A stretch of 64,000 nt of DNA from Bacteroidota bacterium (GTDB lineage Bacteria; Bacteroidota; Ignavibacteria; Kryptoniales; JAKASW01): NCBI GenBank assembly GCA_023480735.1, contig JAMCXB010000011.1, forward strand, positions 30,169 through 94,168, read 5' to 3'. Below, piece after piece: positions 26,379 to 44,427 of this stretch (position 1 is the stretch's first letter; every line of letters starts with the position of its first letter). Both the position numbers and the translations under genes were made by a program. Under the pieces are notes generated by a model that saw nothing but the letters and a program-made list of their open reading frames with translations, had not been told where the DNA came from and ran no database searches.

Positions 26379-28069
26379 GTTCCTCCTCCGAACTTCGATT
26401 GCTGGCTTGAGACGCTCTCGTATTCAAACCGTCCGGCGCCGCCCTGGAATTTTTCCGCGAGATCGACGGCACCCTCGAGGGCGTCGCTGCCATCATCGCC
26501 GATGCCGCCAGCACTCAATGATCCGGGGCTCGGCTCAGCCTTGAGTTGACGGATGACGATGTCCTGATCAGGATCATCGGGATCGAACGTAATCAGTCCC
26601 ATTTTAATGTATGGAGCAAGCCGAGCAATACGGGCGTGCTTGTTGCCGACCTGGTTCACCGGCCAGAAAGGAAGCGGCCTGTGATTCTTTGCCATGTAAC
26701 GGAGGTACTCGCGCTTAATGAAATCCTTATAGGAATTGTCGGCGACGCCGAGGGGATTCGATTTGAAACGGCTGACATGATCATAGGAAGTGTCAAGCAT
26801 CCAGTCGACGTCCGACTGCTGGACGTCCGCCTTCAGAAGTGGGATGTGAAGCCTTTTATTCTTGCCGTCATCGATAAGGCCTATTCCGACCGTGATCACA
26901 GCCTTCGCGTCGCCCGGTTCAGTTGAAGACGGATCAACAAAGGAGACTTTTACGTATTTTGACAGGTCGAGATCTCTGAGGCGGTGGTACTTGAACCATT
27001 CGTCTTTGAAGACCTGGTCTTTTCTCGACCGCGGGCGCATCATGCGTTCGGTGTCGAAGGTGTCGGGATCGTCTTTCTGCTCCTGCAGGAGCTCCAGAGT
27101 CGGGAAACGATATTCCCATGCGGACATTAAATTATCCGGAAAGCCATGGTCACGGCAGGCTTTCGCGATTCGTTTGCCCTCACCCAACCCTCTCCTCGAC
27201 GAGTCGAGTCGTCGACCGGAGGGAGAGGGCACGTTTGGTATGAGCGCACGGAAGATAACCTTGTTGAAATGCCCGGTATTCTTGCCGGTCATGAGTTCGT
27301 CTGTGATGGTTCCCTTCATGGTCCAGTTGCAGAGGTATATCGCGGACCATCGTGGGAAGTTGACTGCCTTGAGGTCGTCACCCTTAATAATATCGACGTA
27401 CTTCTGTACCAGCATCGGGCTATCGGGCGCGTTATTGGCGCTGACGTCGTCGAAGATTATATGATCGGGACGATGGCCGGAGTTTTCCTCTCCCGTCAAG
27501 ACCTGGTCGCGACCATAACCTTTGACCTTCCGGCCGGTCTTAGTAATGAAAGCCCCGAACTCCCACTCGACGCTACCCTGCAACTCTCCGAAATCGGAGA
27601 TGAGACGCCGGTTGTTTTCAAACTCAATCTTAAGCGGGACGACTTTGGATTCCGCCTTGTCTTCGGTGCGGGCGACGAACGGGATGAACCAGCGATCCTC
27701 AAAGACGATCTTGTAAATCGGATCAATCTTGCCAAGGAGGGTGCTCTTTGCTGACTCGCGGAAGCCCGCGACGATCGAGAATTTTTTCATGAGGTCGGCG
27801 ATCTCGAAAAGCTCACGATGGAAGGGAGCGAAGCCGGCGTCGATCCAGTCGTACTTGCCGTCGGGGTCCTTCCAGCATGTCCGATATTGTTCTTTGACCG
27901 TGATGTAGTGTGGGAAGTATGTCGCGGCGAAGAAGAACTTATCTACCTTCGCGCGCTTCTTCCGGGCTTCGCGCTTGGCGGTGGAATCGTTGGGAAACGG
28001 AGTCGACTGCTGCTGGATGCGGCTGAGTAGGTCGCCGAACTGGCGATCAAAGTCGCGCTGGGTTAGCAT
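26372..28069 (-). CDS. Terminase large subunit (Mu gp28-like)
   Basis: 565 aa, downstream of the DUF1804 gene and upstream of the portal. It has ATPase-like 'IVAGFRESAKSTL' and nuclease-half features, and it contains in-frame hairpin repeat R1. Confidence 0.75.
   Translation of the reverse strand: MLTQRDFDRQFGDLLSRIQQQSTPFPNDSTAKREARKKRAKVDKFFFAATYFPHYITVKEQYRTCWKDPDGKYDWIDAGFAPFHRELFEIADLMKKFSIVAGFRESAKSTLLGKIDPIYKIVFEDRWFIPFVARTEDKAESKVVPLKIEFENNRRLISDFGELQGSVEWEFGAFITKTGRKVKGYGRDQVLTGEENSGHRPDHIIFDDVSANNAPDSPMLVQKYVDIIKGDDLKAVNFPRWSAIYLCNWTMKGTITDELMTGKNTGHFNKVIFRALIPNVPSPSGRRLDSSRRGLGEGKRIAKACRDHGFPDNLMSAWEYRFPTLELLQEQKDDPDTFDTERMMRPRSRKDQVFKDEWFKYHRLRDLDLSKYVKVSFVDPSSTEPGDAKAVITVGIGLIDDGKNKRLHIPLLKADVQQSDVDWMLDTSYDHVSRFKSNPLGVADNSYKDFIKREYLRYMAKNHRPLPFWPVNQVGNKHARIARLAPYIKMGLITFDPDDPDQDIVIRQLKAEPSPGSLSAGGIGDDGSDALEGAVDLAEKFQGGAGRFEYESVSSQQSKFGGGTW
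27177..27229 (+). repeat. Prophage hairpin repeat R1 (composite, in frame inside TerL)
   Basis: ccctcacccaaccctctcc-tcgacgagtcgagtcgtcgaccgga-gggagaggg. The loop carries a second palindrome (tcgacga/tcgtcga). In TerL it is translated as 'PSPSGRRLDSSRRGLGEG'. Confidence 0.7.
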
Positions 28070-28073
28070 GCGA

Positions 28074-28106
28074 CCCTCACCCTGGCCCTCTCCCTTTGGG
28101 AGAGGG
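28074..28106 (+). repeat. Prophage hairpin repeat R2 (between the terS stop and terL start)
   Basis: ccctcaccctggccctctccc-ttt-gggagaggg. Confidence 0.75.
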
Positions 28107-28879: not shown

Positions 28880-29253
28880 TGGCGTTTGCCTGCGGCGGTG
28901 ATTCTACCGAGTTCACGGAGTCTCATGTTTCTGGCTGAGACGACATTCACCGGCAGCCCCGTTGCTTTCTCGATCTCCTTGTTAGTCGCGTTGCCATTAA
29001 GCTTGATGCATTCGTAGACTTTTTCCATCTGGGTATTAGCAATCCATGGGTCAAGATCGATAATTGTCTTTGCCAGGTTGCGGGTGTCGGTCGCGACCGG
29101 GATCGATTTCGGCATCGTCTCGGTGCCGATCGGCGCCGGGGATGCAGCTGCTCTCTGATCAAAAAGTGGCAGATCAACTCCGACGCCCTTTTCCTGGATG
29201 CGGGCGAAACGGGCAGCGTTGCGACGCCAGGCTGCGGAGTCGTGATGCTTCAT
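28834..29253 (-). CDS. Winged-helix DNA-binding-like protein
   Basis: From the ATG at 29253: 'MKHHDSAAWRRNAARF...ECIKLNGNATNKEIEKATGLPVNVVSARNMRLRELGRI', which is wHTH-like. The longer ORF from 29442 only reads through repeat R3. Confidence 0.4.
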   Translation of the reverse strand: MKHHDSAAWRRNAARFARIQEKGVGVDLPLFDQRAAASPAPIGTETMPKSIPVATDTRNLAKTIIDLDPWIANTQMEKVYECIKLNGNATNKEIEKATGLPVNVVSARNMRLRELGRITAAGKRQCRVTGFVVTCWRIK

Positions 29254-29255
29254 CG

Positions 29256-29288
29256 CCCTCACCCTTGCCCTCTCCCAGACGGAGAGGG
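29256..29288 (+). repeat. Prophage hairpin repeat R3
   Basis: ccctcacccttgccctctccc-agac-ggagaggg. It supplies the C-terminal '...PSPSGRGQG*' of ORF 29259-29498. Confidence 0.75.
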
Positions 29289-29498
29289 AATGCACTCCCC
29301 CGGCTTGAGTATTTCGCGTATCTTCTCGGCGGCGCGTTTCATCCAGTCCGGAGCATGGTCCATGCAGTAGTAGTCGTTCGCCGGGATAGGAGTGCGGACG
29401 TACGCAATGCCCTTGTCGATGACGCTGCCGCAGACCAGGCAAGTAGGTCGGAAGTACGTGATCGCGGAGATGTCGAACTCGAACGGGATGCCGATCAT
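29259..29498 (-). CDS. Hypothetical small protein (Cys-containing)
   Basis: 79-aa ORF on the operon strand with 'CLVCGSVID...YYCMDH'. Its tail is encoded by R3. Confidence 0.3.
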   Translation of the reverse strand: MIGIPFEFDISAITYFRPTCLVCGSVIDKGIAYVRTPIPANDYYCMDHAPDWMKRAAEKIREILKPGECIPSPSGRGQG

Positions 29499-30130
29499 GA
29501 CCTCACCCCTTTGTCGACCTCACCCTGACCCTCTCCTTGAGAAGGAGAGGGGTTATATAAAGAGGCGTCCGCGTCTGGGCATGCGAGTCGTGCTGTCGCG
29601 CCTTCGTCAGGGGGCTGTTGGGAAGGAGGACGCGGATCGCCTCTGGAACTCATGAATGTCTTGTAAAGCTCATGGATGTTAGGCGCGCCGCCGACGACCT
29701 TGTCTGTGCCGGACGGAGAAATCCAGCCGTGGACGCTCTGGCACTTCAGGTAGGTTATGAAGAGCGCGGCCTCCTGTTTATCCGTAAATGCCTTCTGGTC
29801 GCCCAGCTCCGCTGACGGATTGGAGGTCGCTTTCCGGACGTTAGCAACGTGGGTCTTCTTCTCCTCGGCAATTTTCTCAATCACGACGAGGAACCACCTT
29901 AGTGCCTTCTTCCCGCCACTTGTCGCCCATTTCCAGAGGATCCGTTCCACGTCGGTTGCGAGCAGCCTTTGGCTCTCGACCATCTTCGCTACTTCGTTCA
30001 GTGCCTGCTCCTCGACATAATTGATGCCCATGCCGGTGATCCACGTCGCATGCTGGCGAAGAGTGCCCTCCCGGCCGGCAACCTTGAGGACGAGTCTGTC
30101 GAGTGCTGCGAGTGGGGCAGATGGAGTCAT
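29495..30130 (-). CDS. Hypothetical early protein
   Basis: The ATG at 30130 (MTPSAPLAALDRL...) lies just downstream of repeat R5. The longer ORF to 30220 only reads through R5. Confidence 0.35.
   Translation of the reverse strand: MTPSAPLAALDRLVLKVAGREGTLRQHATWITGMGINYVEEQALNEVAKMVESQRLLATDVERILWKWATSGGKKALRWFLVVIEKIAEEKKTHVANVRKATSNPSAELGDQKAFTDKQEAALFITYLKCQSVHGWISPSGTDKVVGGAPNIHELYKTFMSSRGDPRPPSQQPPDEGATARLACPDADASLYNPSPSQGEGQGEVDKGVRS
29501..29552 (+). repeat. Prophage hairpin repeat R4 (double head)
   Basis: cctcacccctttgtcgacctcaccctgaccctctcc-ttgagaa-ggagagggg. It encodes '...PSPSQGEGQGEVDKG...' at the end of ORF 29495-30130. Confidence 0.75.
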
Positions 30131-30134
30131 AACG

Positions 30135-30185
30135 CCCTCACTCTGACTCTCTCCTCTACGAGGCCGTAGGCCCAGGGGGAGAGAG
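30135..30185 (+). repeat. Prophage hairpin repeat R5 (composite loop)
   Basis: ccctcactctgactctctcc-tctacgaggccgtaggccca-ggggagagag. The loop carries a small extra hairpin (ctacg/cgtag). Confidence 0.65.
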
Positions 30186-30910: not shown

Positions 30911-31144
30911 TTACCTGTCCCTTAGATTTATGATTTGCGTTATATGCTCCACGTTCTCGATCGAGATCGAGATGCGGAGGTTAAAGATTTCGGCGCAGTT
31001 GCTACAGATGCCGGTGCCCTCACCCCGTCCCTCTCCGAAAGGGAGAGGGTGATACACGACGATCCAGTGGCACGCCTCACCCTTATCGCTGATGCAGGCA
31101 TCGTAATCGGTGCAGCCACAATAGAGGCATTTGGTGTCGTTCAT
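30911..31144 (-). CDS. Small Cys-rich (zinc-binding-like) phage protein interrupted in frame by repeat R6
   Basis: 'CLYCGCTDYDAC...GEACHW[IVVYHPLPFGEGRGEGTG]ICSNC'. The bracketed part is encoded by R6. Confidence 0.45.
   Translation of the reverse strand: MNDTKCLYCGCTDYDACISDKGEACHWIVVYHPLPFGEGRGEGTGICSNCAEIFNLRISISIENVEHITQIINLRDR
31017..31049 (+). repeat. Prophage hairpin repeat R6 (in frame inside the Cys-rich ORF)
   Basis: ccctcaccccgtccctctcc-gaaa-gggagaggg. Confidence 0.75.
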
Positions 31145-31392
31145 AGCTTCACGCCCTCACCTAAATCCTCTCCCAAGGGGGAGAGGACATGATGGAGAGG
31201 GGACGCGTGGAAGATGGTTCCGTCCAAGTGGAAATGGTCCGCGAATTCGAGGATGATCTCTATGGCGCGCTCCAGGTCAACCGCGACGGTCACACCTCCG
31301 GATTTCACGCGCATAAACTTACCCTCCGGGATCAGCTCGAGCTGAGCCGGGCAATTATTGCTGTCACACGCGCACTTGATTACCCTATCCAT
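31141..31392 (-). CDS. Hypothetical small protein
   Basis: 83-aa ORF on the operon strand. Its tail '...SPLGEDLGEGVKL*' is encoded by R7. Confidence 0.3.
   Translation of the reverse strand: MDRVIKCACDSNNCPAQLELIPEGKFMRVKSGGVTVAVDLERAIEIILEFADHFHLDGTIFHASPLHHVLSPLGEDLGEGVKL
31154..31203 (+). repeat. Prophage hairpin repeat R7 (long subfamily, shared with R15)
   Basis: ccctcacctaaatcctctccc-aag-ggggagagg-acatgatggagagggga. It is nearly identical in layout to 44376-44427. Confidence 0.75.
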
Positions 31393-31750: not shown

Positions 31751-32272
31751 TTACGCTGTGGCATATTCCGGCTCCGATCTGGTGCGTACCATGACCTCCG
31801 AAAGGCGATCGTGGTTCTGGTTTTCCTCGTAGACGACAAGGTCGTCGGACGTTTCGGCAGTCTTACTCCAATCGAAGCGCGAGAGCCAATCGACGAAATC
31901 CGAAGTGTGATGTGGAAGAAGTCGCTTACATCCTTCGATGAGTCGCAACTTGCCTGCGGGCGTAAGTGATCTTGTGAAGCCGTTGTCCTCGTATTTGAGT
32001 TCAAATAAGAGCGAGGCGAGGCGCGAAATCTTGTCGGGTTGGTTCGGATAAAGATCGTCGGCAAGATTCAAGGCGCGAAGTTCAGTCTGCTGGTTGACCG
32101 CGAGCTGCCGCCATCGGTTGACGGAATCGTGTTGGACCCGGAACTTTGATTCGAGGTCGCGATAGAAATATTCGGCGACTTCGGCGTCGTAGTCCTTGCC
32201 GGCGCGGAGCATTCCGACGATGACAATACCGATGACCATACCGACGGTCAACGCGACAATTACTGTGAGCAT
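31751..32272 (-). CDS. Membrane-anchored hypothetical protein
   Basis: The ATG at 32272 follows GGAGG, and the N-terminus is a TM segment (MLTVIVALTVGMVIGIVIVGML). The longer ORF to 32458 overlaps the GemA-like gene. Confidence 0.4.
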   Translation of the reverse strand: MLTVIVALTVGMVIGIVIVGMLRAGKDYDAEVAEYFYRDLESKFRVQHDSVNRWRQLAVNQQTELRALNLADDLYPNQPDKISRLASLLFELKYEDNGFTRSLTPAGKLRLIEGCKRLLPHHTSDFVDWLSRFDWSKTAETSDDLVVYEENQNHDRLSEVMVRTRSEPEYATA

Positions 32273-32273
32273 T

Positions 32274-32819
32274 TTAACCTCCTGACTTTTGAGTGTTTGG
32301 ATCGGAGGAGCGAACCCCTCCTTTGTCCTCCCCTTGGTAAGGGGAGGAAATGTTTTTGCGGAATTTCTTTGTATGCTTGAGATAGTCCTCTCGGTCTTCG
32401 TCGCTGAGTTTGAGTTTGCCTGACTTGATGTCGCCGTCGATGATGGCGACGAGGGCACGGATGATCAGTGACTGTTCGCGCGGCGTGCATTTGTCCGTGC
32501 GGGGCTTGCTGGTCATGCGGTAGCAGAGATGTGCGGTTTGCTTCCAGGACCAGTGAAGATAATCCATGAGGCGCGCGATCTGGCGGTTTTGCGCAGAGGG
32601 CATAGCGCGCGGCGCAGAGTGCGACGAAGATCGCTCGGCGGCACGACGGAGAGAGATAAGGATAAGGTTAGCGGTTTCGTCGTCGCAATGTGTGAGGTGT
32701 CCTTCCGATCGTGGCTCGGTGTTAAGGACGATCTGACGGAATACGTCATCGTCGATGACGAGGCGATGTTGGAGGGCTTTGATTTTCTGGTTGAACTTGC
32801 GGCGGTCAACGGGATTCAC
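32274..32819 (-). CDS. GemA / Mu gp16-like regulatory protein (DUF1018-like)
   Basis: 'KIKALQHRLVIDDDVFRQIVL...LTHCDDETANLILISL' and its position downstream of MuB fit gp16/GemA. The tail is encoded by R8. Confidence 0.45.
   Translation of the reverse strand: MNPVDRRKFNQKIKALQHRLVIDDDVFRQIVLNTEPRSEGHLTHCDDETANLILISLRRAAERSSSHSAPRAMPSAQNRQIARLMDYLHWSWKQTAHLCYRMTSKPRTDKCTPREQSLIIRALVAIIDGDIKSGKLKLSDEDREDYLKHTKKFRKNISSPYQGEDKGGVRSSDPNTQKSGG
32315..32348 (+). repeat. Prophage hairpin repeat R8 (divergent)
   Basis: cccctcctttgtcctcccc-ttggtaa-ggggagga. Confidence 0.6.
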
Positions 32820-33193: not shown

Positions 33194-33507
33194 TTGCTTA
33201 CTCCTTTCTTGTTTAACTCACGTAGGGCGGACTTTCCCAAATCCGTGAGTGACCAGATTGATTCCGATCGCATTTTGATTTTTGCCACGAAGCCGTTCTG
33301 ACGCAACGACATGAGAAGATGACCGACCCTGAATATTGTCATATCGCATCCGCCCTTGCGGAGATGCGACCAAATTTCGCGCGTCGAGGCTTCATGGCAC
33401 GGCGGCGGAGTGAGCGTCGCGATGGCGGTGAGGACCTCCGGATAATGGTCGGAGGTCGACGAGAATTGACTCAGTCGATTAGCCACGAATACGCCTCCTT
33501 CAGGCAA
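33190..33507 (-). CDS. Winged-helix-like small protein
   Basis: 'STREIWSHLRKGGCDMTIFRVGHLLMSLRQNGFVAKI' is a MarR/wHTH-like pattern. Confidence 0.35.
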   Translation of the reverse strand: MPEGGVFVANRLSQFSSTSDHYPEVLTAIATLTPPPCHEASTREIWSHLRKGGCDMTIFRVGHLLMSLRQNGFVAKIKMRSESIWSLTDLGKSALRELNKKGVSK

Positions 33508-34418
33508 TCGCTGTCAATCTCTCCGAGGTCTTTCATCTGCATAATGTCGTACGCTCGTTTGAAGAGGTTGACGAACGACCGAATGCCGTCATGTTTCACC
33601 GACCAGTCCCACGCCTGTTTGATCTCCGCCTTGTCAAGGTCGTGAGGGAAACGGTCGGCGATCTGCTTTGCCTCACCGATGTCGATGTCACCGATTCGGC
33701 GCTTGATCGGGATTCGACTACGGAGATAACCGAGGTCGTCATTTTGCAGAAGCCTAAGCAGCCGATCGCTGGCGATGAGGACGATGGCACAGCGCTCCTG
33801 GTTGTCACCATGGATGTCACGGAGAAGTTTCAGGCTCTTCGGCTTGAGTTCGTCGGCTTCGTCGACGATGAGAAGCATCGGGTTGCGCTGCAGGTGACGG
33901 ATGATTGCAGCGAGGCGGTTGGCGGCGGGTCCGCTAATCTGGTCATTGATGTCGAGAGACTCGGCGATCTTGTTGAGCAGCTCCATGGGAGACGAAGCGC
34001 CTGATAACTCAATGAACCTGGCGTAGTCGGGGTGCTGCGCAACATACAGGAGAGCGGCTTCCGACTTTCCGCGTCCGAACCGTCCGACCACCATGCCGAT
34101 CTCTTTCCGCTTCCAGGTGAGTTCGATGACGGCTTCGATCTCGTCGACCGTCCTGGTACGGACAATCGTGTGACGTGCCACCCAGTAACGGTAGAAGCGG
34201 GCGATAGCGTCGAGGACCGTCGCGTCGTCAGCCTGGTATTTCCCACTGAGGACCTGAGAGACAGTGGACGTCTTGAAGCCAGTTGCCTTTTCGATGTCCT
34301 TTAGTTTGAGTTCCCCCGAGGAGACAAGCTCGGCGACTTTTTTCCGGATAGCCTGGGGATCATCGCCGGTGACGCGGAGATTTTCGACCAGATTAAGTTT
34401 GACTGCTGCTTGTGGCAT
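33471..34418 (-). CDS. MuB-like AAA+ ATPase (transposition target-DNA activator)
   Basis: The ATG at 34418 follows GAGGAGG. It has an N-terminal HTH ('IEKATGFKTSTVSQVLSG'), Walker A 'GRFGRGKSEA' and Walker B 'LLIVDEAD', and lies directly downstream of the transposase. Confidence 0.75.
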   Translation of the reverse strand: MPQAAVKLNLVENLRVTGDDPQAIRKKVAELVSSGELKLKDIEKATGFKTSTVSQVLSGKYQADDATVLDAIARFYRYWVARHTIVRTRTVDEIEAVIELTWKRKEIGMVVGRFGRGKSEAALLYVAQHPDYARFIELSGASSPMELLNKIAESLDINDQISGPAANRLAAIIRHLQRNPMLLIVDEADELKPKSLKLLRDIHGDNQERCAIVLIASDRLLRLLQNDDLGYLRSRIPIKRRIGDIDIGEAKQIADRFPHDLDKAEIKQAWDWSVKHDGIRSFVNLFKRAYDIMQMKDLGEIDSDCLKEAYSWLID

Positions 34419-34449
34419 GATTACGCCTCCTCTATAATGTGTGCCATGA

Positions 34450-34830
34450 TTACATTTCCCTGTCGAAGTGGCCGTCTTCGGGGTCATCACCCTCACCCTG
34501 TCCCTCTCCCTCCGGGAGAGGGGACGCCAGTTGACGGCCCTCAGGTATGTACGGGAGCGGTGAACGGTCATATTTCTCGCGGGCCATGTTGTACTTGCGG
34601 CACCATGCTTCAGTGGTTGGGGAGATGGAGAAGATCGCCTTCGGTCCGTAGAGGACCGAGTGAGAAAAGCCGGTCTCGCCTTTCGTGATGTCGATCTGGA
34701 GCATGACCTCCGTGCCGATTTTGCGGGTTGTCAAACGGCCAGCGCAAGTGGTGTGCCCCATGATCTCGAGAAAAGCCCAGGCGTCGATGTTCTCTTCCTG
34801 AATCGGGATTGTTGTGGCTTCGAAGTCCAT
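34450..34830 (-). CDS. Hypothetical protein between MuA and MuB
   Basis: 126-aa ORF. Its tail '...SPLPEGEGQGEGDDPEDGHFDREM*' is encoded by R9. Confidence 0.35.
   Translation of the reverse strand: MDFEATTIPIQEENIDAWAFLEIMGHTTCAGRLTTRKIGTEVMLQIDITKGETGFSHSVLYGPKAIFSISPTTEAWCRKYNMAREKYDRSPLPYIPEGRQLASPLPEGEGQGEGDDPEDGHFDREM
34486..34523 (+). repeat. Prophage hairpin repeat R9
   Basis: atcaccctcaccctgtccctctccc-tcc-gggagagggg. Confidence 0.75.
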
Positions 34831-34834
34831 TTTG

Positions 34835-36727
34835 CTACCTAATTTTGTTGACGGCTGCGATGGTAAGCTTTGTCGACTTCGCGAATGCCTTCGCAGTCTC
34901 TTCCAGCTCGACCATCTCTTTGTGTTTTTTGACTTGCTTGCTTTGTTCGATCGCTTCCTTCTCGATGCCGGTCATGACGACGACCTGGGGTGTTGACTTA
35001 GAGAGGAGTGCTTCCGGTACAGCTACGGCGGTTGAGAGCTTGCCTTCGAGCAGCAAGTACTTCGCGTCGGTGCGGGTAATGCCCTTGCGGACTTCCTGTA
35101 GTTCTTCTTTTAGGTCGCGCTCGTGGCGGCGGCGGTCTTTGAGTATTTTTACCCACCCACGGGCGTCCTTGCCGAACATGTCTTTGTTGGCGGCGGTCGC
35201 GATAAACTTTCCGTCGACGTAAATCGATACGACGCCGAGGTCCCGTAGGTCATAATAGATCTCCGCGCGCTTTCCGTTGTACTTAAACAATTCGTCGGAA
35301 TAGTATTCGCTTCCGAGGAGCGTGACCTGGCTGCGCTTGATCGGCCGCTTCTCGACGCGGTTCATTAAGAAGTCAAGGATGCGAACGTCGATCGTCCGGT
35401 TCTGGTGTTGGTTGGTGAGATAATATATGAGAGGCGATTGATCCTTGAGGGATCTGTGGATTTTGTTGTTGTAAACATTTACGGCAAGGGCAACGAGTTT
35501 GTCGAACGTCTCGACCTGCAGTATCTGTCCTGCCTTGATCTCTTCGCCGAGAGAATCCGGTTTGTTCAGGCGCATGTTGTTGCCCTTGTAGCCGGGCAGA
35601 TACTTGACCATACGCTGGATCGTACCGTACCATCTTTCCTGTTCGGCTTTACTCATACCGTGGTACGGCAGAGTGTAGTGGAGCCTGGTAATCCGGCTGA
35701 CGGAGAGGCGAGCCTGGTCGTTGAAGTCCACCTTCCCAAAGACCCTTTGAGTGTACTTTGAACGGTAGTCCTTGCCGTTATCGATCGTGACGTTTTCGGG
35801 GAGGCAATTGACATGGACGGGTTCGTAGTGGCCCTCACCGACCTCACCCCGACCCTCTCCTTCTAAAGGAGAGGAAGGCATCACAAACGCTTTGAGCTGG
35901 CCGCCCAGTACCGCGTTACGGAACGCCATAGCTATCGTGTCGGAGTTCGGCTGCCATGACAGGTAATAACCGACGATGAGGCGGGTCCGCATGTCGATGA
36001 ACGACGTAATCCACCGTCGGTCGAACTTTCCCTGCTCGTTCATGATGATGAAATCCAACTCGGTATGATCGCCGAACCACAGCTCGTTCACTGCGTACTG
36101 TTCCGGGTCACGGGTGACGAATGGCATCTGCTTGGCATCGAAGTCGTTCTTCCTAGAACGTCCGTAGCGGATGGAGATCTCCGATTCCCTCACTCGCCGG
36201 AGGTAGCGAACGACTGAGGAAAGTGCGGGTAGATCTCCAATCGCTGCGGGTGTACCATCATCGGTGACGACCTGGCCTGCGCGGGTCCTCGTTACGAGCG
36301 CCTTGTAGACGGCCTCCGCGTCGACGTTCTCGTGACTGTACAATGATTTCGCAAGGTCATCCAGCCCGATGCATTCGCCGGTCGTCGGCACGACAACAGA
36401 GAGATGCTTCGCCGAGCGGAGAGTCATCTTGTCGGAACGCTCGCTGCGTGCCACGACGTTTTCAATCGCGGCTCGAAGTTGCGGATGGTTGAGTACGGAT
36501 TCAAAGGACGAGCGGGGTTCGAGTCCGAAGATCTTCCGCAGTTTCGCTTTGTACCGGCGCTGCGTGCCAGCGGGAAGGCCGTGACTGGCGGCGATCGACT
36601 TCTCGAGCTCGCTCACGTTATCAGCGGTTGAGATTGAGAGCGTCATCGCGTCGATCTTGCGGATGACATCCGGGGTGAGCTTGTCGGCGGGGACGAGTTC
36701 GAGGTCTATGGATGATGGTACAGTCAC
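34835..36727 (-). CDS. MuA-type DDE transposase (rve core plus Mu transposase C-terminal region), carrying in-frame repeat R10
   Basis: 'WFGDHTELDFII' (D1), 'VTIDNGKDYRS' (D2) and 'PYHGMSKAEQERWYG' (E). The start is GTG at 36727. 'PSSPLEGEGRGEVGEG' between D1 and D2 is encoded by R10. Confidence 0.85.
   Translation of the reverse strand: MTVPSSIDLELVPADKLTPDVIRKIDAMTLSISTADNVSELEKSIAASHGLPAGTQRRYKAKLRKIFGLEPRSSFESVLNHPQLRAAIENVVARSERSDKMTLRSAKHLSVVVPTTGECIGLDDLAKSLYSHENVDAEAVYKALVTRTRAGQVVTDDGTPAAIGDLPALSSVVRYLRRVRESEISIRYGRSRKNDFDAKQMPFVTRDPEQYAVNELWFGDHTELDFIIMNEQGKFDRRWITSFIDMRTRLIVGYYLSWQPNSDTIAMAFRNAVLGGQLKAFVMPSSPLEGEGRGEVGEGHYEPVHVNCLPENVTIDNGKDYRSKYTQRVFGKVDFNDQARLSVSRITRLHYTLPYHGMSKAEQERWYGTIQRMVKYLPGYKGNNMRLNKPDSLGEEIKAGQILQVETFDKLVALAVNVYNNKIHRSLKDQSPLIYYLTNQHQNRTIDVRILDFLMNRVEKRPIKRSQVTLLGSEYYSDELFKYNGKRAEIYYDLRDLGVVSIYVDGKFIATAANKDMFGKDARGWVKILKDRRRHERDLKEELQEVRKGITRTDAKYLLLEGKLSTAVAVPEALLSKSTPQVVVMTGIEKEAIEQSKQVKKHKEMVELEETAKAFAKSTKLTIAAVNKIR
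35832..35874 (+). repeat. Prophage hairpin repeat R10 (double head, in frame inside the MuA catalytic core)
   Basis: ccctcaccgacctcaccccgaccctctcc-ttctaaa-ggagagg. Confidence 0.75.
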
Positions 36728-41202: not shown

Positions 41203-41242
41203 CCCTCACCTGAATCCTCTCCCCGATAGAATTGGGGCGAGG
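41203..41242 (+). repeat. Prophage hairpin repeat R11 (intergenic, upstream of gpI)
   Basis: ccctcacctgaatcctctcccc-gatagaatt-ggggcgagg (one stem mismatch). Confidence 0.65.
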
Positions 41243-42711: not shown

Positions 42712-42712
42712 A

Positions 42713-42744
42713 CTCACCTGAATCCTCTCCTCGAAGAGGAGAGG
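42713..42744 (+). repeat. Prophage hairpin repeat R12 (starts 2 nt after the gpI stop)
   Basis: ctcacctgaatcctctcctc-gaa-gaggagagg. Confidence 0.75.
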
Positions 42745-43212: not shown

Positions 43213-43246
43213 CCCTCACCCCGATCCTCTCCCTTAAGGGAGAGGG
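43213..43246 (+). repeat. Prophage hairpin repeat R13 (4 nt after the stop of 42792-43208)
   Basis: ccctcaccccgatcctctccc-ttaa-gggagaggg. Confidence 0.75.
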
Positions 43247-43278
43247 AGTGTGGCGGAGGAACTATTCAACTTTAAAAA

Positions 43279-44352: not shown

Positions 44353-44427
44353 CCTCAGCCCTGACCCCTCTTCAACCTCACCTAAATCCTCTCCTAAGCG
44401 GAGAGGACATGATGGCGGGAGAGGGGA
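44353..44427 (+). repeat. Prophage hairpin repeat R15 (extra partial head plus the long subfamily copy)
   Basis: cctcagccctgacccctcttcaa + cctcacctaaatcctctcc-taagc-ggagagg-acatgatggcgggagagggga. Confidence 0.7.

Follow-up and report, generated by a model that had tools for sequence, protein, structure and literature searches.

An in-frame triplex-motif repeat in the catalytic core of a MuA/TnsB-type transposase of a Mu-like prophage, probably a tolerated loop insertion

The transposase gene of a Mu-like transposable prophage, located in a 64,000-nt stretch of a Bacteroidota genome (contig JAMCXB010000011.1, positions 30,169 to 94,168; hereafter the window), carries a short hairpin repeat that is translated as part of the protein. 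Our analysis suggests that a repeat of the BoxC/PIT/triplex-motif type was inserted into this gene (34835–36727, minus strand) and that, with a probability we put at roughly 80 %, it represents a tolerated in-frame loop insertion rather than a functional part of the enzyme. The insertion added 15 codons, a multiple of three that kept the transposase frame, and the repeat is read in its one stop-free phase (third block GGT-GAG-G, not GGG-TGA; loop TTA-GAA, not TAG). Translation of the repeat gives a bulge of 17 residues, rich in Pro, Ser, Gly and Glu and probably disordered, at a hairpin tip in the RNase-H-like core; the catalytic triad D220-D316-E364 is untouched. This copy is one of 12–15 accumulated in the phage, mostly at gene junctions. 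Given the preserved frame, the stop-free phase, the variable loop and the untouched triad, the transposase copy is best read as passively tolerated.

The repeat comprises 45 nt of the minus strand (35832–35876) with the sequence CCTCTCCTT-TAG-AAGGAGAGG-GTC-GGGGTGAGG-TC-GGTGAGGG. A pyrimidine arm CCTCTCCTT (CCTCTCC(TT), 35866–35874), a TAG loop (35863–35865) and a purine arm AAGGAGAGG ((AA)GGAGAGG, 35854–35862) were identified from the sequence and from hairpin folding, which predicts a perfect 9-bp stem in DNA and RNA alike (DNA centroid fold, −8.5 kcal/mol). Following a spacer, the third block GGGTGAGG (35842–35849) is the mirror image of the purine arm GGAGAGGG and is read ..G-GGT-GAG-G.., avoiding the GGG-TGA stop phase. 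A second, duplicated tail GGTGAGGG occupies 35832–35839; alternatively, these may be native Gly-Glu-Gly codons, and a duplicated tail is also present in another copy of the repeat (29501–29549). The minus-strand codons from 35881 to 35831 (ATG CCT TCC TCT CCT TTA GAA GGA GAG GGT CGG GGT GAG GTC GGT GAG GGC) specify residues M283–G299 of the transposase, peptide MPSSPLEGEGRGEVGEG, so that the translated feature (35832–35881) accounts for a net gain of 15 residues over the family mode. An in-frame hairpin repeat encoding 'PSSPLEGEGRGEVGEG' had been proposed here in the original prediction, and re-reading of the sequence confirmed both its position and its frame, the peptide corresponding to residues 284–299. 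Neither the 33-nt copy nor the 19-nt core is expected by chance (0.00 expected occurrences in shuffled sequence), and the core has nine overlapping matches, equivalent to eight sites, on a single strand of the window.

Judged by sequence and by its modelled fold, the product of 34835–36727 is a DDE transposase of the MuA/TnsB type, encoded by an intact gene of 630 codons. Pfam assigned residues 453–511 to the Mu-transpos_C beta-barrel (PF09299, E value 2.1e-8), a family profile search matched ShCAST TnsB (E value 4e-29) and a Foldseek search with the AlphaFold model returned TnsB (7svw, E value 1.6e-19), MuA (4fcy, 5e-16) and 1bco (2e-10). We collected 99 homologues, mainly from metagenome-assembled genomes of Kryptoniota, Ignavibacteriales and Bacteroidota, with close ones also in KSB1. 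The predicted catalytic residues are D220 (codon 36068–36070, in WFGDHTELD), D316 (35780–35782, in VTIDNGKDY) and E364 (35636–35638), all encoded on the minus strand; each is invariant in an alignment of 77 sequences and aligns with its TnsB counterpart (CDHT, TDGGKDF and E321, respectively). This triad and the 22 invariant columns of the alignment are all intact in the window transposase. The repeat therefore lies between the first and second catalytic Asp residues, flanked by the two motifs that the original prediction had described.

As in MuA and TnsB (4fcy, 1bco, 7svw), a DDE RNase-H-like core is combined with a Mu-transpos_C beta-barrel, and the gene adjoins one for a MuB/TnsC-like AAA+ ATPase (33471–34571, minus strand; AAA_22, E value 9.5e-17), a neighbour kept in all relatives examined. 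However, sequence identity to these enzymes is only 14–19 %, Pfam indicates no relation of the N-terminal DNA-binding region to MuA domain I, and between helix alpha1 and strand beta4 the window enzyme has 15 additional residues, the bulge encoded by the repeat. The phage shares with Mu the head gene set gpI, gpT, Gp36 and Gp37 and, in relatives, a Gam homologue beside the transposase, but differs from it in that the transposase gene is positioned mid-genome, between divergent early and late arms.

Comparison with homologues revealed that the approximately 15 additional residues are a lineage-specific indel, as had been suspected. Among the 77 aligned homologues, the segment from the end of helix alpha1 to the second catalytic Asp (DNGKDY) has a modal length of 46 residues, compared with 61 in the window. 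The nearest relatives carry no insert: the site reads TTC AAC GGC GAG ACC TAC (F-N-G-E-T-Y) in L006/P0002, which is 80 % identical to the window protein, and F-N-G-T-E-Y in L209/P0004 (73 % identity), while in the window F-V is followed by 17 repeat codons and then by ...H-Y. No relative with more than 80 % identity to the window transposase was found in the metagenome, viral and genome collections. Two more distant homologues carry an equivalent peptide, and in both of them the nucleotide repeat is present as well; among homologues that lack the repeat, none has such a peptide. P0025/L002 (51 % identity) has CCTCTCC-TTCTTCA-GGAGAGG-GCAG-GGGTGAGG at the same spot, encoding SPSPSSGEGRGEV, and P0077/L003 (38 % identity) has the variant CCTCCCC-TTTCCAA-GGGGAGG-ACCGA-GGAGGGG. 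No copy of the gene was found to be disrupted. In a maximum-likelihood tree each of the three carriers has a sister without the repeat (P0001 versus P0003, P0025 versus P0030, P0077 versus P0078) and the branches concerned are well supported, indicating at least three separate gains; by this sequence comparison, the same turn of the transposase gained the repeat three times, in different phage lineages.

The alignments also identify the insertion site as an indel hotspot and the most length-variable point of the core. Most of the distant homologues of the superfamily align as two blocks that break across residues 275–308, and other insertions occur in the same loop. In L007 (1500–1570) we found an unrelated hairpin insertion, GGGACACGT-TGCG-ACGTGCCC, which adds six aa, and in P0015, P0020, P0024 and L134 the sequence CCCCGC-GAGCA-GCGGGG adds seven. 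Given the variety of these hairpin mini-insertions, mutation by short palindromic insertion apparently recurs at this turn.

In the predicted structures the repeat peptide bulges out from the end of a beta-hairpin that lies between helix alpha1 and strand beta4. In the AlphaFold model of the window transposase (mean pLDDT 79), helix 262–274 (alpha1) is followed by strand 279–282, the insert with a short helix (287–290) and pLDDT below 50 at residues 293–296, strand 300–303 and a strand (312–316) that ends in D316. The model of the insert-less P0002 has the same succession (helix 261–273, strand 278–280, strands 285–287 and 296–300, the last ending in D300), with a four-residue turn, NGET, that forms a tight hairpin of good model confidence. 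In RNase-H-like cores in general, strand beta4 starts at a distance from the sheet's catalytic end. By analogy with this topology, the insert is probably remote from the catalytic end in the window enzyme too. Both the alignment and the modelled position of the insert, in a low-confidence loop at a hairpin tip, agree with the tolerated loop insertion envisaged in the original prediction. The enzyme is presumably still active with its insert.

The open frame itself carries some information on selection. An insertion of arbitrary length and phase leaves a gene open with a chance of at most ~2/9; the two or three clean internal copies in this phage thus weakly suggest (p ~0.01–0.05) that the interrupted genes were under selection at the time of insertion, and selection probably filtered the insertion sites. 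The 630-aa ORF (open reading frame) is uninterrupted across the repeat, and the insert-bearing allele recurs without differences in contigs of three mine-tailings runs and of one mine-drainage run from another study, an identical protein being encoded on an independent 13.3-kb contig. No contig that skips the insert was found in these four runs, a result that refers to assemblies, in which rare variants would not show. Other contigs of the same samples match the repeat alone, which places the repeat family elsewhere in the community.

Several points weigh against passive tolerance. The prophage could be inactive, in which case tolerance would not have been put to the proof. The perfect 9-bp stem and intact third block could mean that the copy is maintained for a purpose and is not merely recent. 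Three gains in one loop, together with a gene junction that holds a repeat in two phages, with different loop and spacer sequences, could reflect a preference for particular sites rather than random insertion followed by selection. Finally, the comparison covered assembled contigs, behind which minority alleles without the insert could be hidden.

The repeat itself can be assigned to a known family. BoxC repeats were described by Bachellier et al. in the 1990s, and their function, origin and means of spread have all remained obscure since. Holder et al. (2015; PMC4666352) described 23 'TM_ECO' units of Escherichia coli K-12, which are these BoxC repeats and also the PIT elements of Hoyne et al. 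(2000); such repeats are reported from E. coli and more than 260 other bacteria. An example from E. coli reads CCCTCTCCC-TTCCA-GGGAGAGGG-TCG-GGGTGAGGG; as a single strand, the unit folds in vitro into a purine-motif intrastrand triplex (class II by circular dichroism [CD] and NMR), although a stable triplex was not detected in vivo (PMC4666352). In the same study the units blocked DNA polymerase in vitro, acted neither as promoters nor as terminators, left RNA polymerase unaffected and marked variable intergenic places; those of E. coli were always intergenic, without strand bias, and were not found on phages, plasmids or transposons (PMC4666352).

By every structural criterion that can be computed from its sequence, the transposase repeat is a member of this BoxC/PIT/TM_ECO family. 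It has a pyrimidine and a purine arm of the CCCTCTCCC/GGGAGAGGG type separated by a short loop, it matches the type B consensus GGGAGAGGG-TCG-GGGTGAGGG (Table 1 of PMC4666352), and its third block follows the purine arm after 3–4 nt as a mirrored copy (G on G, A or T on A), GGAGAGGG-TCG-GGGTGAGG being an exact mirror. The loci fetched contain 259 informative units (those whose purine arm is not its own mirror image); the tail mirrors the arm in 235 of these and is a direct copy of it in 23. The rule extends to rare variants such as GGGGAGG/GGAGGGG, GAGGGGA/AGGGGTG and GGGGGAGA/AGAGGGGG. Common to the phage copies and the published units are CCCTCTCCC, a loop of 3–7 nt, GGGAGAGGG, a spacer of 3–4 nt and GGGTGAGGG, with variable loops and conserved arms. 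The phage copies differ in that arms are often 7 nt instead of 9, in that ~15 of them lie in a single orientation within one 37-kb prophage, and in that copies are translated, in the catalytic core of the transposase and in the large terminase (TerL); the intergenic location of the E. coli units, which is a descriptive and not a structural feature, does not hold here.

Other families of short repeats were compared with the phage copies. Rickettsia palindromic elements (RPEs), reportedly described by Ogata et al. in 2000 as 'selfish DNA in protein-coding genes', resemble the transposase copy in behaviour: both are palindromic repeats lying in frame in intact, often essential genes, with a tolerated peptide in a surface or loop region, and the transposase copy is likewise absent from orthologues. 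The likeness is one of behaviour and not of homology; RPEs measure 100–150 bp, encode 30–50 residues and are confined to Rickettsia, whereas the triplex-motif unit measures 30–50 bp, occurs in many bacterial phyla and has a third, mirrored block. REP sequences are often located just 3' of genes, are extragenic and have a conserved 5' GTAG-type head. With the REP/REPIN-RAYT system the triplex-motif units share the character of short dispersed hairpin repeats that are possibly served in trans by a single-copy gene, but they have a third mirror block and no GTAG-type head, and the co-located gene encodes a DUF559 protein rather than a RAYT; the Y1_Tnp genes of this genome are on other contigs, and no link between them and the repeats was seen. 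Membership of the miniature inverted-repeat transposable elements was rejected on the grounds that neither terminal inverted repeats nor a target-site duplication or shared flank were present in 15 copies and three pairs of filled and empty sites.

Within the genome, the repeat is largely confined to the prophage. A strict pattern matched 11 copies in the 2.81-Mb genome, nine of them in the prophage, where they are a few hundred times denser than elsewhere in the genome. A generic triplex finder detected 12 prophage copies, all G-rich on the minus strand, and three further degenerate or composite copies in the same orientation were seen by eye, giving a total of 12–15. Family-like matches number ~17 in the whole genome and ~5 in the 2.77 Mb outside the prophage. 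Genomes of the same genus carry 0–9 copies each and most related phages 0–3 copies per 22 kb, showing that the repeat has expanded locally in this phage; the small numbers outside the prophage and in the genus also led us to reject the drift of a host repeat into the prophage. No second copy of the phage that might have served as the source of the repeats was present in the genome. Beyond these relatives, a BLAST search of 50,697 GenBank phage records, which has low sensitivity for a 39-nt query, returned almost no full units, with only 22-nt hairpins in phiKZ-like phages, while a scan of IMG/VR identified at least 120 contigs.

The recurrence of the repeat in one loop raises the question of targeting. 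The repeat, or the machinery that copies it, might prefer GGNGAG-like purine runs such as Gly-Glu codons and Shine-Dalgarno (SD) sites; the repeat would then be mobile but non-autonomous, with a DUF559 (YcjD-type) nuclease possibly serving it in trans. We consider this explanation rather unlikely, although several observations are in line with it. Besides the three gains, the empty site is GGC-GAG or GGA-GAA (Gly-Glu) in most relatives and resembles the third block, and the native Gly-Glu codons of L002 may themselves act as that block; the same gene junction is filled in the window and in L006 by repeats with unrelated loops and spacers; and many copies abut SD-like positions. On the other hand, the copies have no target-site duplication and no conserved flank, the empty site of L003 reads GAC-GAT-GGG in its sister and not GGNGAG, and the loop also accepts unrelated insertions, as simple tolerance predicts.

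The junction shared with L006, between a gene of 211/228 aa and one of 79/95 aa (29501–29549; L006, 9042–9062), illustrates the ambiguity. The 44 nt upstream are ~98 % identical, whereas the two copies have different loops (TTCTCAA versus CAAATTG), spacers and adjoining 5' flanks, and on their downstream side the sequences are less similar. This pattern fits re-insertion at the same site, conversion between copies or recombination at the repeat.

The involvement of a DUF559 nuclease is suggested by proximity. Each of the three genes for DUF559 (YcjD-like) proteins in this genome (C22, 3897–4808; C54, 40308–40909; C70, 54165–55332; all outside the window) has triplex-type motifs within 50–550 bp, and these are variants with the arms CCCCCC/GGGGGG, TCCCCTC/GAGGGGA and TCTCCCCC/GGGGGAGA, each with a mirrored tail. 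As the finder returned 38 matches in 2.8 Mb, chance is very unlikely to have produced three pairings as close as these. In viral contigs that had been chosen for the canonical repeat alone, three DUF559 genes were found (Pfam E values 1e-32 to 1e-36; L079, 1201–1830; L060, 379–1196; L078, 176–700), and every one of them has canonical CCCTCTCCC...GGGTGAGGG units on both sides, often arranged as inverted pairs. In E. coli K-12 a TM_ECO unit lies ~180 bp from the end of ycjD (L296, 1706–1726). A literature search found no paper linking DUF559 with triplex-motif repeats. However, the link is correlative, the host's three DUF559 genes adjoin other variants of the repeat, and the prophage contig carries none, so that any help from DUF559 would have to be given in trans.

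A wider and decidedly speculative proposal follows the same lines. Triplex-motif repeats might be non-autonomous mobile units that invade phages strand-specifically via single-stranded replication intermediates, possibly aided by DUF559, and repeatedly at preferred purine-rich sites, namely SD positions and the Gly-Glu turn of the transposase. They would be retained afterwards either as prefabricated modules for ribosome binding or as loops that do essential enzymes no harm. If this were true, it would provide a mobility mechanism, a phage vector and a first functional role for a repeat that has been an orphan for 30 years.

We regard as improbable that the transposase copy is a functional cis-element of which the peptide is a by-product. 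At the DNA or RNA level, the hairpin, triplex or G-rich structure of such an element might restrict the dosage of the transposase by slowing transcription or translation, offer a point for recombination or module exchange, or serve as a strand-specific signal for replication or packaging. The copies do show features that could reflect such a role. The early genes are on the minus strand (~22–37.7 kb) and the late genes on the plus strand (38–58 kb), so that transcription is divergent, and yet all 12–15 copies have one absolute orientation (two-sided binomial p ~5e-4 for 12/12); the orientation follows the DNA strand and not transcription. Stems and third block are conserved, unlike the freely varying loops and spacers, the transposase copy is structurally perfect, and one junction copy is located where similarity to a related phage drops. 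Six early-arm copies place their SD-like third block 2–10 nt before start codons, in a host that uses SD-like sequences (such a motif precedes 27 % of host genes against a background of 9.5 %). In the transposase, however, no in-frame start codon follows the repeat, the nearest relatives function without a repeat at this site, and the RNA fold of the region is no more stable than those of shuffled sequences (z = −0.9). The low copy numbers of most relatives (0–3 per 22 kb) indicate that the phage family does not depend on the repeats, and the E. coli units lacked promoter and terminator activity, an effect on RNA polymerase and a stable triplex in vivo (PMC4666352).

Two specific roles for the transposase copy were rejected in addition. 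The hairpin is followed by G-rich sequence without a T run, unlike an intrinsic terminator, and published tests of the family found no terminator activity (PMC4666352). An internal start for a truncated transposase would need an ATG, GTG or TTG in frame after the repeat, and there is none; the sole GTG nearby opens a 61-codon ORF that is out of frame. A G-quadruplex is less likely as the main structure: canonical copies fit the pattern G3N3G3N3G3N3G3, but the transposase copy has only three G3 runs, and the published CD and NMR data favoured a triplex.

An ancestral native loop that merely resembles the repeat, or an assembly artefact, is hardly credible: Gly and Glu are native at this position of the family and short-read contigs tend to break at the repeat region, but at the nucleotide level the site holds a full repeat unit whose 9-bp stem is perfect and whose tail is mirrored, this unit is missing from the sister and the nearest relatives, the contigs of four runs that span or enter it show no differences, and the same 630-aa protein recurs on the independent 13.3-kb contig.

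The repeat family is already known, as are palindromic repeats read through in genes (the Rickettsia RPEs). Relative to the literature that we searched, four points are new: the triplex-motif family occurs in coding sequence, it is concentrated in a phage with strict strand polarity, it recurs in a single turn of a MuA/TnsB core, and it is often placed so as to form the ribosome-binding region of an early gene. The window contradicts the description of the repeats as strictly intergenic and not on phages, which was based on E. coli (PMC4666352), with two copies read through in the two key DNA enzymes of the phage, the transposase and the terminase. The turn would be a natural permissive insertion site in the MuA/TnsB core, of use where CAST and Mu transposases are to be tagged or engineered, and the prophage offers a compact system for studying the spread of the repeat, its strand bias and its possible role in ribosome binding. 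Were the insert no more than tolerated junk, it would still make a tidy case of selfish DNA in coding sequence, of modest importance.

The remaining copies in the window are all G-rich on the minus strand. At 27179–27227 a composite repeat, whose loop contains a further palindrome (TCGACGA..TCGTCGA), lies in frame in the large terminase gene, where it is free of stops and adds 11 residues relative to a TerL of 79 % identity. All sense-oriented translated copies use the phase GGT-GAG-G, the GGG-TGA phase containing a stop. An intergenic copy (28076–28104) has its third block ending 6 nt before the TerL start codon at 28069. It is followed by a gene-junction copy (29258–29286) 4 nt before the ATG at 29253, the copy with a duplicated tail at the junction shared with L006 (29501–29549), 2 nt before the ATG at 29498, a degenerate composite copy (30135–30185) 4 nt before the ATG at 30130, and two further early-arm copies (31019–31048 and 31155–31185), the second of which is 10 nt before the ATG at 31144. 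The copy at 34492–34520 encodes the C-terminal tail of a 126-aa ORF and directly precedes a possible start codon of the MuB-like ATPase gene. In total, six of the 10 early-arm copies end 2–10 nt before real ORF starts (28069, 29253, 29498, 30130, 31144 and the possible MuB start at 34487), and at all six the third block GGGTGAGG provides GAGG at SD distance. The start of the MuB-like gene is ambiguous (34487 or ~34418) because the SD-like block of the repeat precedes a candidate start.

One early-arm copy is a variant, CCTCCCC/GGGGAGG/GGAGGGG, with a mirrored tail (32315–32346). It appeared to lie in frame in the ORF 31751–32458; however, homologues start at residue 63, so that the gene, which ends at 31751, truly begins at ~32272 and the copy lies upstream of it; it was rejected as an internal copy. 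The late-arm copies are intergenic and are arranged around the gpI, decoration-like and gpT genes: a partial or degenerate copy upstream of the gpI-like protease/scaffold gene (41204–41241), one just past this gene (42712–42744), one before the gene for the gpT-like major capsid protein (43215–43249) and one past the latter (44376–44405).

The layout of the prophage (22000–58800) is unusual for a Mu-like phage, with the transposase mid-genome; the terminase and portal genes continue the early minus-strand arm, and the protease, capsid and tail genes form the divergent plus-strand arm. In IMG/VR relatives the transposase is likewise ~10–20 kb from the contig ends. Through both arms (18000–62000) GC skew is positive on the plus strand and AT skew flips with transcription; the G-rich strand of the repeats is the strand opposite to this overall excess of G.

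Translated copies are not confined to the window. In-frame copies are present in the N-terminal regions of other transposases of the family (P0007, P0030, P0077 and P0081), and in viral contigs they occur in confirmed phage proteins, for example in the C-terminal region of a portal protein. In L050 (1238–2659), a 474-codon frame contains methyltransferase and nucleotide-diphospho-sugar transferase domains joined by a linker with two repeats read in antisense; two genes may have been fused here via read-through of the repeat. Outside the prophage, a canonical repeat (C40, 29656–29688; L295, 2157–2189) lies in frame in a 397-aa host ORF, encoding the peptide ..SPVLGEGLGEGG.., and a second copy is positioned directly past the stop codon of the same ORF.

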